Source of the DNA: Candidatus Berkelbacteria bacterium
GTDB lineage: Bacteria; Patescibacteriota; UBA1384; 2-12-FULL-50-11
Reading direction: 5' to 3'
NCBI GenBank assembly: GCA_016432625.1
Contig: CP066697.1
Span: forward strand, 671,951-735,950
Length of the DNA: 64,000 nucleotides
Below, in pieces: positions 48,351-52,632 of the stretch. The translations under genes were made by a program, and so were the position numbers. The notes under the pieces are model-generated. The model was not told where the DNA came from. It ran no database searches and saw nothing but the letters and a program-made list of their open reading frames with translations. The stretch's first letter is position 1; every line of letters begins with the position of its first letter.

Positions 48351-49451
48351 TTAGGAGAGTGACTCCTTGATCGCCTGGATGACGTAGTCCTGCTCTTCGC
48401 GAGTCAGGTCCGGTCCGATGGGCAAGCTGAGCACTTCAGCCGCCGCTCGCTCCGCTTCCGGCAATTCGTAGCCGAAATCGGCGAACGGTTCGAGCTTGTG
48501 AATCGCGACAGGGTAGTAGATCTCCGTGGAGACCCCTTTCACCTTCAACGATTCCTGGAGCTCATCGCGCCGACCACCGTTCACCCGCAGGGTGTACTGG
48601 TGGAAGACGTGGGTACCGTAGTCGCGAGTCGCTGGCACAGAGAGCCCTTCGACCTCGGCCAATGCCTCGCTGTAGTACGTGGCCGCTTCGAGCCGCCGCG
48701 CGTTGCACCAGTCGAGGTGCGGCAGTTTGGTCCGCAAGATCGCCGCCTGCAACGTGTCGAGCCGGGAGTTGTAGCCGGCCACTTCGTTGTGGTATTTCTT
48801 GCGCGCTCCGTGGTTACGGAGCATCCGTAGCTTTTCGGCCATCTCATCGTCGTCCGTCAGCATCATACCGCCGTCGCCGTAGGCGCCGAGGTTTTTGCTG
48901 GGGAAGAACGACAGGCAACCGATGTCGCCGATCGTACCAAGCTTGTTGCCTTGGTAATCAGCGCCGAAAGCCTGGGCGACGTCTTCGACGATCGCCAGGT
49001 CGTGCTCGGCGGCCAACGTCACCAGCGGATCCATATCGACCGCTTGGCCGAATAGGTGTACCGGGATGATCGCTTTGGTACGAGAATTGATCCTCGGCGC
49101 AACCTCGTCGACGTTCATGTTGAACGTCTCGGGATCGATATCGACGAAGACCGCCTTCACACCAAGGTGCAGGAGCGGTTCGACGGTGGCAAAGAAGGTG
49201 AACGGGGTCGTAATGACTTCGTCGCCTTCCTTCAAGTCGAGCGCTCGGGCAGCGATCATTAGAGCATCGGTGCCGGAGTTACAGCCAATGGCGTGTTTGG
49301 CGCCAGTGTAGGCGGCGATCTCGGTTTCGAATTCCTTGACCGGCGCGCCCATGATGAATTGAGTGCTTGCGAGCACTCCCTCGATCGCTTCGGTGAGCTG
49401 CGGCCGGAGCCGTTCCACCTCGAGACCGAGATTGAGCATTCTGACTTCCAT
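48351..49451 (-). CDS. DegT/DnrJ/EryC1/StrS-family PLP-dependent sugar aminotransferase (WbpE-like)
   Basis: 'SFFPSKNLGAYGDGGMMLTDDDEMAEKLRMLRNHG' contains the catalytic Lys region of DegT aminotransferases. Confidence 0.9.
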   Translation of the reverse strand: MEVRMLNLGLEVERLRPQLTEAIEGVLASTQFIMGAPVKEFETEIAAYTGAKHAIGCNSGTDALMIAARALDLKEGDEVITTPFTFFATVEPLLHLGVKAVFVDIDPETFNMNVDEVAPRINSRTKAIIPVHLFGQAVDMDPLVTLAAEHDLAIVEDVAQAFGADYQGNKLGTIGDIGCLSFFPSKNLGAYGDGGMMLTDDDEMAEKLRMLRNHGARKKYHNEVAGYNSRLDTLQAAILRTKLPHLDWCNARRLEAATYYSEALAEVEGLSVPATRDYGTHVFHQYTLRVNGGRRDELQESLKVKGVSTEIYYPVAIHKLEPFADFGYELPEAERAAAEVLSLPIGPDLTREEQDYVIQAIKESLS

Positions 49452-49508
49452 AGTTCTTTCGATGTTCCTTACCCTGTCTGGTCGAAACCAGACAGGGATT
49501 TGTGGTTG

Positions 49509-50177
49509 CTACTCGGTTACCGGCTCGAGACGGCCGTCGCTTTCGCGATACGCTCGGCCACAGTCTGTGCAGACGAGCCGTCCTTGATCGTGCTCCCTGA
49601 GGGGGTTGCCGCACTCACAGGTCCAACCGACCTGCTTGGCCGGCACGCCCATGACGAGAGCGTAGGGCAGGATGTCGCGGGTGACGCAGGCGTGAGCTGC
49701 CACAAAGCAGCGCTCTCCCAGAGTCGTACCGCAGACAACCGTTACTCCCGCCCCGATGGTGGCGCCGCGTTTGACCAACGTTTTGACGTAGTCGTCGCTG
49801 GTCTCCCGAGGGAAACCGCAACGCGGGATCAGAACGTTAGTGAAGCGCATGTTCGGGCCACAGAAGACCAGATCCTCCAGGGTTACCCCTTCGAAGATGC
49901 TGATGTGGTTTTGGATCTTGCAGCCGCGGCCGATCTCGACGTTACGCTCGATTGAGACGTACTTGCCGATCCGACAGTCGTTGCCGATCTTGGCGCCGCC
50001 CATGATGTTTGAGTAGTGCCAGACCTGGACGTTGTCGCCGAGGCGAGCGCCCTTGTTGATGATGACACCAATGCCAATCTTGCAGTTTTGACCGATGACA
50101 ACATCGTCCTCGATCACTGCGTTATACATGACAGTTGTGCCTTCACCGATCTGGGCCTTGTCGCTGATCTGACTCAT
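49509..50177 (-). CDS. Hexapeptide-repeat (LbH) sugar N-acetyltransferase (WbpD-like) with C-terminal Cys4 zinc-ribbon
   Basis: Repeated [LIV]-G-x-x-x-x hexapeptides ('IGQNCKIGIGVIINKGARLGDNVQV'). C-terminal 'CECGNPLREHDQGRLVCTDCGRAY'. Confidence 0.85.
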   Translation of the reverse strand: MSQISDKAQIGEGTTVMYNAVIEDDVVIGQNCKIGIGVIINKGARLGDNVQVWHYSNIMGGAKIGNDCRIGKYVSIERNVEIGRGCKIQNHISIFEGVTLEDLVFCGPNMRFTNVLIPRCGFPRETSDDYVKTLVKRGATIGAGVTVVCGTTLGERCFVAAHACVTRDILPYALVMGVPAKQVGWTCECGNPLREHDQGRLVCTDCGRAYRESDGRLEPVTE

Positions 50178-51216: not shown

Positions 51217-51259
51217 ATGTTCGGGTGAAAATCAAAAGGGAGCAGACGCTTGTAAGGCG
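51217..51259 (-). terminator. Rho-independent terminator after the wbpA-like gene
   Basis: On the minus strand: gggagcag...ctgctccc hairpin followed by TTTTGATTTT. Confidence 0.5.
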
Positions 51260-51297
51260 CACTGCTCCCTTTGGCTGGGGGCGTGTGGTAAAGGCTC

Positions 51298-52632
51298 CTA
51301 GAGCAGGACGACGTTGTCGAAACTGCCCAAGGTGCGAGTGTGGCCGCGGGTGTCCAGAACCAGTCTGGCTTGCCCGATAAGACCCTGGTAGTCCACCGTC
51401 GAATGGTTGGTCGTGATGACCACCAGATCCATGCTTTGGAACAACTCATCGGTAAGCTCGACGCTCTCGAAGAGCGTGTCGCCGATCATGGTCTTCGGGA
51501 TGAACGGGTCGTGGTACTGAAGCACCGCACTCCGTTCGTGGAAGAGCCTAAAGACCTCGAGCGCCGGGCTCTCGCGATCGTCATCGATGTCGCCCTTGTA
51601 GGCAACGCCGAGGATGAGAACCTTGGCACCGTTGACGGCCTTCGCCGCTCGGTCGCTTAGGAGTCGCGCCGCTTTGTCGACGACAAAGTGCGGCATGTTC
51701 CGGTTGACCTTGCCAGCGAGCGCGATGAACTCCGTGGTGATCCCGAGCTCCTTGGCTTTGTGCTCCAAGTAGTGCGGGTCGAGCGGAATGCAGTGCCCGC
51801 CAACGCCCGGGCCTGGGTAGAAGGGCATGATGCCGAACGGCTTTGAATTGGCCGCATCGACCACTTCCCAAACGTTCAGTCTGAGCTGGTCGCAGATCAT
51901 CGCCAGCTCGTTGACAGCAGCGATGTTGTAAGCCCGGAAGGTGTTCTCCCAGACCTTGACGAGCTCCGCTGCCGATGCGCTCGACACGACCACGATGTGG
52001 TCGAGCGTCGTCTCGTAGAAGGCTTTGGCCACCTCCAGCGAGCGAGGGCCAACCGGACCAAGCACCTTGTGGGTGTTCTTGGTGGTGTACTTGATGTTGC
52101 CTGGGTCGACACGCTCCGGCGAATGGACGAGGTAGAAATCCTCCTCGACCTTCAAGCCGCTGCGTTCGAGAATTGGCAGCATCTCACCCTCGGTCGTGCC
52201 GGGGTACGTCGTTGACTCCAGCGAAACCAGTTGCCCGGCTCGCAGGTGTCGCGACAGTTCGTCGGTGACGCCAAGGACATATGTGAGGTCCGGCGTCAGA
52301 TTCTTGGTCAGGGGAGTCGGCACGGCGATGACGATGACGTCCATCTCCGGGACTCGCGAGAAATCGTGCGTGGCGACAAGCTTGCCGCCCTCGACGAGTT
52401 CTTTCAGCTCAGTGTCGTCGACGTCACGGATGTAATTCCGCGCGCCGTTGACCTGATCGCAACGATCTTGGTTTTGGTCGACGCCAATCACCGGGAAACC
52501 CGCTTTGGCCGCTTCGACAGCGAAGGGGAGGCCCACATAGCCCAGCCCAATCACGCCGACGACAGCCTCTTTAGTGCGGATTTTATCCAGCAGAGACGCC
52601 TCTTGATGTAGGGTACTCACAGCACCCAGCAT
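51298..52632 (-). CDS. UDP-N-acetyl-D-glucosamine/mannosamine 6-dehydrogenase (WbpA/WecC-like nucleotide-sugar dehydrogenase)
   Basis: 'VVGVIGLGYVGLPFAVEAAKAGFPVIGVD' N-terminal Rossmann motif. Catalytic Cys region 'GPGVGGHCIPLDPHYL'. Confidence 0.9.
   Translation of the reverse strand: MLGAVSTLHQEASLLDKIRTKEAVVGVIGLGYVGLPFAVEAAKAGFPVIGVDQNQDRCDQVNGARNYIRDVDDTELKELVEGGKLVATHDFSRVPEMDVIVIAVPTPLTKNLTPDLTYVLGVTDELSRHLRAGQLVSLESTTYPGTTEGEMLPILERSGLKVEEDFYLVHSPERVDPGNIKYTTKNTHKVLGPVGPRSLEVAKAFYETTLDHIVVVSSASAAELVKVWENTFRAYNIAAVNELAMICDQLRLNVWEVVDAANSKPFGIMPFYPGPGVGGHCIPLDPHYLEHKAKELGITTEFIALAGKVNRNMPHFVVDKAARLLSDRAAKAVNGAKVLILGVAYKGDIDDDRESPALEVFRLFHERSAVLQYHDPFIPKTMIGDTLFESVELTDELFQSMDLVVITTNHSTVDYQGLIGQARLVLDTRGHTRTLGSFDNVVLL

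Follow-up and report, generated by a model that had tools for sequence, protein, structure and literature searches.

A probable UDP-2,3-diacetamido-2,3-dideoxy-glucuronic acid cassette in Candidatus Berkelbacteria, with a predicted 3-dehydrogenase from outside the WbpB lineage

Can a candidate phyla radiation (CPR) bacterium make an acidic sugar carrying two acetamido groups, and if so, with which enzymes? The question is raised by four adjacent genes in a 64,000-nucleotide stretch of a Candidatus Berkelbacteria genome (GenBank contig CP066697.1), the whole of which we call the window. The surface chemistry of CPR bacteria is little known, and many of them are thought to depend on host cells. 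The genes encode a nucleotide-sugar dehydrogenase, a Gfo/Idh/MocA oxidoreductase, a hexapeptide N-acetyltransferase and a DegT_DnrJ_EryC1 aminotransferase (Table 1). An original prediction had read them as a complete WbpA/WbpB/WbpD/WbpE-like set in a small-genome organism. The organism is indeed a CPR bacterium, a Berkelbacteria metagenome-assembled genome according to NCBI records of identical proteins, and the open reading frames (ORFs), together with the Pfam and NCBIfam profile searches with which gene families were assigned, confirm four contiguous minus-strand genes of the families named. Our results support a modified model, in which the cassette probably, though far from certainly, makes UDP-2,3-diacetamido-2,3-dideoxy-glucuronic acid (UDP-GlcNAc3NAcA) for a surface glycan by means of a 3-dehydrogenase that is not of the WbpB type. 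The dehydrogenase, acetyltransferase and aminotransferase are orthologue-grade counterparts of characterised Wbp/Wlb enzymes, but the oxidoreductase is not a WbpB relative. A route to UDP-GlcNAc3NAcA is still the best reading of the cassette, as neither the dehydrogenase nor the aminotransferase falls with enzymes of other pathways.

Pairwise comparison gives the dehydrogenase an identity of at least 42% with WbpA of Pseudomonas aeruginosa PAO1 (328 bits); the WbpA query was machine-read, with reading errors, from the supplement of PMC4031482, so that identities to it are lower bounds. Escherichia coli WecC (35%, 206 bits), Bordetella pertussis BP1629 (37%, 210 bits) and a Ugd-like protein (27%, 77 bits) all score lower, and in the reverse comparison the top partners of WbpA within the set were the Thermus, window and Acetothermia enzymes. 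Identity rises to 65% with the dehydrogenase of a canonical cluster in Thermus albus and lies at 62–66% for enzymes of Rhodothermus, Meiothermus, Thermus, Bipolaricaulota and Deinococcus, several of which are named UDP-N-acetyl-D-glucosamine dehydrogenase by JGI. The protein also passes TIGR03026, "nucleotide sugar dehydrogenase" (396.8 against a cut-off of 189.8 bits), which is a generic subfamily model and the only NCBIfam model whose cut-off any cassette protein reaches. We rejected a UDP-N-acetylmannosamine dehydrogenase of the WecC/Cap5O kind (NF008286, 248 against 459 bits; NF040825, 259 against 750 bits), and the WecC, TviB and Ugd identities in general, all of which fell below equivalog cut-offs and scored lower than WbpA in pairwise comparison. 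In pairwise comparison the dehydrogenase sides with WbpA, as had been predicted. Its orthology supports its assignment as a WbpA-type NAD-dependent 6-dehydrogenase of UDP-N-acetylglucosamine (UDP-GlcNAc), an activity that is predicted from that orthology.

The aminotransferase is likewise placed among enzymes acting at C3. Its PDB ranking is headed by 7b0d, 7n63, 8e75, DesV (2oga), WbpE (287 bits) and QdtB, whereas the C4-type enzymes perosamine synthase (224 bits), ArnB (172 bits) and PseC (121 bits) score lower; a 4-aminotransferase identity was rejected on this ranking, in which the C3 enzymes WbpE, DesV and QdtB stand higher. Direct alignment with WbpE over 345 residues gave 42% identity (280 bits); identity to the Thermus albus aminotransferase, whose PDB ranking is similar, is 56%, and the Berkelbacteria protein carries the lysine motif SFFPSKNLG. 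It is predicted to be a WbpE-type nucleotide-sugar C3-aminotransferase dependent on pyridoxal phosphate.

For the acetyltransferase, the top PDB match is WlbB of Bordetella petrii (3mqg, 162 bits), aligned over residues 37–215 including the C-terminal tail. The two are 45% identical, identity to the Thermus albus acetyltransferase is 54%, and JGI names close homologues UDP-2-acetamido-3-amino-2,3-dideoxy-glucuronate N-acetyltransferase. These matches point to a predicted left-handed beta-helix N-acetyltransferase of the WbpD/WlbB type. The original prediction had also noted an extra Cys4 zinc ribbon at its C terminus. The motif is present, but it is not extra: it occurs in 109 of the 120 closest homologues, none of its four cysteines varies across 25 aligned sequences, the Thermus canonical-cluster enzyme among them, and the region aligns with the Cys-poor C-terminal tail of WlbB, in which the cysteines have been lost. 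Thus we discarded the idea that the ribbon is a peculiarity of the Berkelbacteria gene and regard it as a common trait of the WbpD family. A match of the region to Trm112p in Pfam is weak and under threshold (E = 5.8e-4), and the motif is best described as a putative zinc ribbon.

The oxidoreductase is where the locus departs from the known pathway. Its alignment with PAO1 WbpB covers only 59 residues around the EKP motif (34% identity, E = 1.6e-4), and BLASTP against the WbpB-type enzyme of Thermus gave E = 0.12. None of the WbpB/WlbA structures was matched in the PDB search at E <= 1e-10, none appears among the top 60 PDB matches of a profile built from 24 family sequences, and none is among the top 50 Foldseek matches of the AlphaFold model. 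A WbpB/WlbA-type ORF was not found elsewhere in the window either. The best PDB matches of the family profile are instead the uncharacterised structure 3c1a (138 bits) and then, over the full length, GnnA (7bvj, 122 bits). Foldseek ranks GnnA (7bvj/7bvk) first, second, fourth, sixth and seventh for the model (pLDDT 92.6; TM-scores 0.83–0.88), a soft signal, as the scores of many other Gfo/Idh/MocA folds come close. The top NCBIfam match is NF040723, an archaeal UDP-GlcNAc 3-dehydrogenase model, again over the full length (151 bits, short of the cut-off of 450); two other members of the family also have it as their full-length top match at 160–179 bits, below the same cut-off, and the WbpB-type enzyme of Thermus does not match it at all. 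Given the 59-residue alignment and the first and second places of GnnA in the fold and profile rankings, the oxidoreductase is not the WbpB orthologue it had been taken for. It is a predicted 3-dehydrogenase of UDP-GlcNAc, or of the corresponding uronic acid (UDP-GlcNAcA), of the GnnA/archaeal type, and most likely a non-orthologous replacement of WbpB/WlbA drawn from a separate, widespread and uncharacterised bacterial lineage.

These matches also bear on whether the cassette makes some other 3-amino sugar, namely a dTDP-linked 3-acetamido-3,6-dideoxyhexose, as in the Qdt system, or the GlcN3N precursor of lipid A, as with GnnA and GnnB. Such an outcome is very improbable. QdtB, DesV and QdtC do occur among the PDB matches, and of the solved structures GnnA is closest to the oxidoreductase, but the acetyltransferase scores 162 bits with WlbB against 64 with QdtC and is WbpD-type rather than LpxA-type, neither a 4,6-dehydratase nor a 3,4-ketoisomerase lies next to the operon, and the window ORFs showed no lipid A genes.

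What ties the oxidoreductase to 3-oxidation is its genomic company. A scan of species-representative genomes with the oxidoreductase family found at least 517 relatives, and associations were counted within 6 kb at the best 80 of these loci. A WbpD-like acetyltransferase was found at 69 of them, a DegT aminotransferase at 50, a dehydrogenase at 28 and a 2-epimerase at 19; a WbpB-type gene was found at none. At the 15 closest loci among the matches listed (at least 41% identity), the corresponding numbers are 14 for the acetyltransferase, 13 for the aminotransferase and 14 for the dehydrogenase. This guilt by association is strong evidence that the family performs the 3-oxidation step. About 9 of the 120 best oxidoreductase homologues are fused to the acetyltransferase, and the predicted role follows from these fusions together with the slot that the gene occupies and its kinship to UDP-GlcNAc 3-dehydrogenases.

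The fusion proteins, of about 510 aa, come from Bipolaricaulota (Acetothermia), Nitrospiraceae and metagenome contigs (P0006, P0023, P0043, P0049, P0062, P0080, P0083, P0111 and P0115). In Acetothermia bacterium 64_32 (L005), the gene order is the same as here, with the Berkelbacteria-type oxidoreductase and the acetyltransferase fused in one 510-aa protein (9311–10843) and followed by the aminotransferase and a 2-epimerase. The Bipolaricaulota fusion (P0111) is 50% identical to our oxidoreductase in its N-terminal part and 52% identical to our acetyltransferase in its C-terminal part, and is flanked by the same dehydrogenase and aminotransferase. In contrast, the Berkelbacteria genes are separate, the 3' end of the first overlapping the start of the second by 4 bp (ATGA), and the 2-epimerase is an addition of the Acetothermia locus. 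Through this overlap the pair is predicted to be translationally coupled. The acetyltransferase also has an N-terminal extension of about 29 residues with hexapeptide-like repeats (residues 1–29, approximately 50091–50177), found only in this protein and its closest relative (P0122), and the region corresponds to the inter-domain linker of the fusions.

Comparison with known systems sharpens this contrast. In Thermus albus (L004), the order is dehydrogenase, oxidoreductase, acetyltransferase, aminotransferase and Wzx; gene order is thus identical, the three shared enzymes are 65, 54 and 56% identical (dehydrogenase, acetyltransferase and aminotransferase, respectively), and the Cys4 tail is common to both acetyltransferases. 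The Thermus oxidoreductase, however, is a true WbpB-type enzyme (433 bits to T. thermophilus 3o9z and 327 bits to PAO1 WbpB 3oa2), whereas the same slot in Berkelbacteria holds a member of the GnnA/archaeal-type family. With the Wbp enzymes of PAO1 (WbpA, B, E, D and I) and the Wlb enzymes of Bordetella (WlbA–D), which make UDP-ManNAc3NAcA, the manno counterpart (PMC10622841, PMC4031482), the Berkelbacteria cassette would share its chemistry up to UDP-GlcNAc3NAcA; it also shares 42–45% identity to WbpA, WbpE and WlbB and a glycan-cluster setting with Wzx and Wzy. It differs in its 3-dehydrogenase, which has only the superfamily core in common with WbpB, an enzyme that recycles NADH with alpha-ketoglutarate, and also in its CPR host, in the want of a WbpI 2-epimerase in the window, and in a window without recognisable lipid A genes. 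GnnA of Acidithiobacillus ferrooxidans (7bvj) and NF040723 are the best full-length fold and profile matches and provide the chemistry that is needed, oxidation of the C3 hydroxyl of a UDP-HexNAc. GnnA is only about 24–25% identical, however, and feeds lipid A synthesis together with GnnB, whereas the partners in Berkelbacteria are WbpD- and WbpE-type; from NF040723, the oxidoreductase is set apart by its score, 151 bits against 450. We take NF040723 to be built around MMP0352, presumably the UDP-GlcNAc 3-dehydrogenase of the archaeon Methanococcus maripaludis, and MMP0350–0353 there presumably parallel WbpD, E, B and A. Two mechanistic kinds of pathway 3-dehydrogenase are recognised, the ping-pong WbpB and the sequential WlbA (PMC10622841). 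The present oxidoreductase would be a further lineage beside them. A Psychrobacter study (PMC8040287) concerns the C4 pathway to bacillosamine and has no bearing on the cassette, and our literature search found no link between CPR bacteria and wbpA or diacetamido sugars.

Which stereoisomer is made depends on a 2-epimerase. The original prediction had left room for a mannuronic product, which finds no support within the window: a UDP-GlcNAc 2-epimerase was found in none of its six frames, its ORFs contain no Epimerase_2 domain, and tblastn with WecB and the Acetothermia epimerase returned E >= 0.18. Because the window lacks this enzyme, the gluco configuration is expected. It has been proposed that a set of four genes without wbpI points to GlcNAc3NAcA and a set of five to ManNAc3NAcA (PMC4031482). 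In the pathway we favour, the WbpA-type dehydrogenase, whose activity rests on orthology, would first oxidise C6; the Gfo/Idh/MocA oxidoreductase would then turn the 3-hydroxyl into a ketone, the WbpE-type aminotransferase would convert the ketone to the 3-amine with its pyridoxal phosphate cofactor, and the WbpD/WlbB-type enzyme would N-acetylate that amine with acetyl-CoA. Glycosyltransferases of the surrounding cluster would use the product, possibly after amidation by an adjacent AsnB-like enzyme.

The cassette appears to be transcribed in two parts. Conservation was judged against a related contig (L003), the closest relative of the window, with 70–90% protein identity and the same synteny. 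Downstream of the dehydrogenase stop codon, a hairpin followed by UUGAUUUU has a predicted folding energy of -25.6 kcal/mol (z = -3.5; 0 of 200 shuffles as stable), and L003 keeps both the stem, through compensatory changes, and the T-run. The hairpin fits the separate terminator that had been predicted for this gene. The remaining three genes would form an operon behind the sigma-70-like promoter TGGACA-17-TATAAT, with a coupled first pair, a lineage-specific hairpin between the last two genes and a bidirectional terminator at the end. Such promoter sites are not rare by count alone (5.4 kb held 2, where chance would give 1.8, not significant); what supports the candidate is that it falls within the 185-nt gap between the genes and that L003 conserves it, with the same -35 box, TACAAT as the -10 box and equal spacing. 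A Shine-Dalgarno sequence, GGAGGA, stands at 51117–51122, 4 nt before the ATG on the oxidoreductase side of the operon. The palindrome over the -35 box, proposed earlier as a possible operator, is likewise present, but its right arm is broken in L003 (CCAGGCT to CGAGCTT), whereas the promoter there retains its -35 and -10 boxes; since it is not conserved there, the operator idea is weak, and the palindrome is probably a chance feature.

The hairpin between the acetyltransferase and aminotransferase genes has a predicted energy of -20.5 kcal/mol (z = -4.4) and a counterpart in L003 of -25.9 kcal/mol (z = -4.7), its stem maintained through at least four compensatory pairs; it occurs only in the window and L003 and was absent from 18 other, more distant loci. 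Its role may lie in mRNA stability, processing or attenuation. A conserved TAAGGA follows the hairpin, and in a Chloroflexaceae metagenome-assembled genome (L086, approximately 1483–1667) the corresponding spacer holds a tandem heptamer, (GCGTACT)n. The operon closes with a terminator (-27.8 kcal/mol, z = -3.35) that is conserved in L003 and shares sequence with the final codons of the convergent AsnB-like gene. Like that of the dehydrogenase gene, it is a predicted intrinsic terminator. The upstream end of the dehydrogenase gene is less clear-cut. A second promoter-like site, TTGACA-17-TATTAT (52631–52659, minus strand; 11/12 positions), lies just upstream, its -10 box overlapping the annotated ATG at 52632. 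The gene also begins 35 nt downstream of a DUF2304 gene, a gap from which it is possible that the two are co-transcribed or that the true start of the dehydrogenase differs.

Base composition suggests that the two transcription units have a common origin. The four cassette genes have a GC content of 0.584–0.599 and a third-position GC content (GC3) of 0.69–0.78, against 0.525 +/- 0.021 and 0.605 +/- 0.036 for the 34 other genes of the window, and the equivalent region of L003 (2–4276) shows the same contrast. Apart from L003, the nearest homologues are 50–66% identical and, where named, belong to Bipolaricaulota, Deinococcota, Rhodothermus, Verrucomicrobiota and Bacillota; no CPR member occurs among the best 80 of the at least 517 genome loci. 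From the GC-rich island and the closest homologues outside CPR, it is most likely that horizontal transfer brought in the four genes together from outside CPR, before the lineages of the window and L003 diverged. Divergence between these two is uneven across the syntenic block: protein identity is 90% for the dehydrogenase, 83% for the neighbouring AsnB-like protein and 89% for the neighbouring SDR (short-chain dehydrogenase/reductase) protein, and lower for the operon genes (oxidoreductase 70%, acetyltransferase 76%, aminotransferase 74%). Faster evolution and recombination are both possible causes.

The shared island weighs on the question of whether the two transcription units serve one product or two. 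The three-gene operon could make the neutral UDP-2,3-diacetamido-2,3-dideoxy-glucose while the dehydrogenase provides UDP-GlcNAcA for a different residue, which the AsnB-like enzymes might amidate. Separate transcription, the many loci of the oxidoreductase family that have no dehydrogenase, and the position of the dehydrogenase 35 nt downstream of a glycosyltransferase family 2 (GT2)-DUF2304 pair, with which it may be co-transcribed, are consistent with such a division of labour, but all four genes lie in one GC-rich island in two related genomes and their order is kept across phyla. We regard two products as quite unlikely.

A more serious challenge concerns the order of steps. The same end product would result if the oxidoreductase acted on UDP-GlcNAc at C3, amination and acetylation then gave UDP-GlcNAc3NAc, and the dehydrogenase oxidised C6 last. 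Among described proteins, those closest to the oxidoreductase are UDP-GlcNAc 3-dehydrogenases (NF040723, and GnnA as top fold and second profile match), 52 of the best 80 loci lack a dehydrogenase within 6 kb while 69 have the acetyltransferase, and the transcription signals are separate, with a terminator for the dehydrogenase and a promoter for the operon. It is the use of UDP-GlcNAc by these relatives, together with the lack of a nearby dehydrogenase at most distant family loci, that makes this inverted order a live rival. We nonetheless think it improbable: the dehydrogenase stands immediately upstream at 14 of the 15 closest loci among the matches listed, the three other enzymes are close to those of the canonical Thermus cluster, for which a WbpA-first order is assumed, and WbpA-type enzymes, in accounts that also summarise the pathway as a whole, have been characterised on UDP-GlcNAc (PMC10622841).

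Several points count against the WbpA-first pathway that we prefer. The described relatives of its oxidoreductase act on UDP-GlcNAc and not on UDP-GlcNAcA, the bacterial members of the family appear to be biochemically uncharacterised, and the cassette proteins miss every NCBIfam equivalog cut-off. Given the 52 of 80 loci without a nearby dehydrogenase and the terminator that here separates this gene from the operon, we infer both the order of steps and the dehydrogenase's part in the same pathway. The search for a 2-epimerase covered the 64-kb window, and such a gene may lie elsewhere on the 769-kb contig. The absence of CPR relatives rests on the best 80 of at least 517 loci and is not proven.

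The setting of the cassette fits a role in surface-glycan synthesis. Domain scans of the window ORFs place it inside a glycan cluster spanning approximately 30–63 kb of the window, with two Wzx-type flippases and three Wzy_C/O-antigen-ligase-like proteins (30919–36061 and 56434–62493), several glycosyltransferases of families 4 and 2, one methyltransferase, an SDR epimerase/dehydratase and two AsnB-like amidotransferases. The three Wzy_C-like proteins and two flippases suggest that glycans are assembled on more than one line. The window ORFs showed no domain of an initiating phosphoglycosyl transferase, and whole-window Rfam and tRNA scans gave zero matches. Next to the cassette, the AsnB-like and SDR genes are syntenic in L003 (with the identities given above). 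The first may encode a tailoring enzyme that forms a uronamide and the second a further tailoring step on the sugar, roles suggested by position; the SDR protein reaches no NCBIfam equivalog cut-off (TviC, 131 bits against 760). A paralogue of the AsnB-like protein is encoded at 38797–40662 (minus strand), both pass TIGR01536, and both are candidates for amidation of uronic acids rather than asparagine synthesis. On the other side of the cassette, the GT2 glycosyltransferase and its small DUF2304 membrane protein (52668–53740, minus strand) are divergent from a 496-aa multi-pass membrane protein (53813–55303, plus strand) with weak similarity to DUF6541. The top NCBIfam match of the GT2 is PpgS, a polyprenyl-phospho-GalNAc synthase (153 bits, short of the cut-off of 370), and together these genes look like a module of lipid-linked sugar donor and extracytoplasmic transferase. 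Further away, the stretch 1108–11173 encodes a platform protein of the T2SS-F type, two proteins that carry prepilin N-methylation motifs, and one of 1697 aa that contains Kelch-like repeats; it probably represents a type IV pilus-like locus, which CPR bacteria commonly have.

Table 1. Features of the cassette and its immediate neighbours, in window coordinates
Feature	Coordinates	Strand	Details
SDR epimerase/dehydratase-family protein	45399-46478	+	359 aa; Epimerase family 192 bits
AsnB-like glutamine amidotransferase	46488-48329	+	613 aa; Asn_synthase and GATase domains; TIGR01536 490 bits; convergent neighbour
Predicted bidirectional intrinsic terminator closing the operon	48290-48337	.	15-bp stem between A-tract and U-tract
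DegT_DnrJ_EryC1 aminotransferase	48351-49451	-	366 aa; Pfam 417 bits
Intercistronic hairpin, acetyltransferase/aminotransferase gap	49472-49497	-	11-bp perfect stem; no U-tract on the mRNA strand
Hexapeptide (Hexapep) N-acetyltransferase	49509-50177	-	222 aa
Cys4 motif, CxC...CxxC, putative zinc ribbon	49548-49628 (Cys 49560-49619)	-	Acetyltransferase G184-Y210; C187, C189, C203, C206
Gfo/Idh/MocA oxidoreductase	50174-51112	-	312 aa; GFO_IDH_MocA N- and C-terminal domains
Candidate sigma-70-like promoter, TGGACA-17-TATAAT	51202..51174	-	11/12 consensus positions
Palindrome AGCCTGG-N6-CCAGGCT	51206..51187	-	7-bp arms; overlaps -35 box
Predicted intrinsic terminator of the dehydrogenase gene	51225-51272 (stem 51235-51272)	-	Hairpin, then U-rich tail
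Nucleotide-sugar dehydrogenase	51298-52632	-	444 aa; all three UDPG_MGDP_dh domains

Finally, our results can be joined into a broader picture, which we offer tentatively and consider doubtful as a whole. The oxidoreductase family would be a third bacterial 3-dehydrogenase lineage beside WbpB and WlbA, acting on UDP-GlcNAc with freely exchanging NAD+ and without alpha-ketoglutarate recycling, in a pathway that runs through 3-oxidation, amination, acetylation and then 6-oxidation. It would occur in hundreds of species of many phyla, often fused to a zinc-ribbon WbpD, and would have been transferred into a CPR lineage that uses the sugar, possibly as a uronamide, in a host-contact glycan.

In summary, the chemistry of this pathway is already well known, and the advance is an incremental one, namely a widespread, uncharacterised 3-dehydrogenase lineage and an unusual host. 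A family with at least 517 relatives, annotated merely as "Gfo/Idh/MocA family oxidoreductase", is the probable 3-dehydrogenase of the pathway in many phyla, and surveys that look for WbpB or WlbA alone would call the pathway incomplete in genomes that carry it. For CPR bacteria, the predicted acidic di-N-acetylated sugar, encoded on what appears to be an acquired island, is a concrete glycan component to seek.

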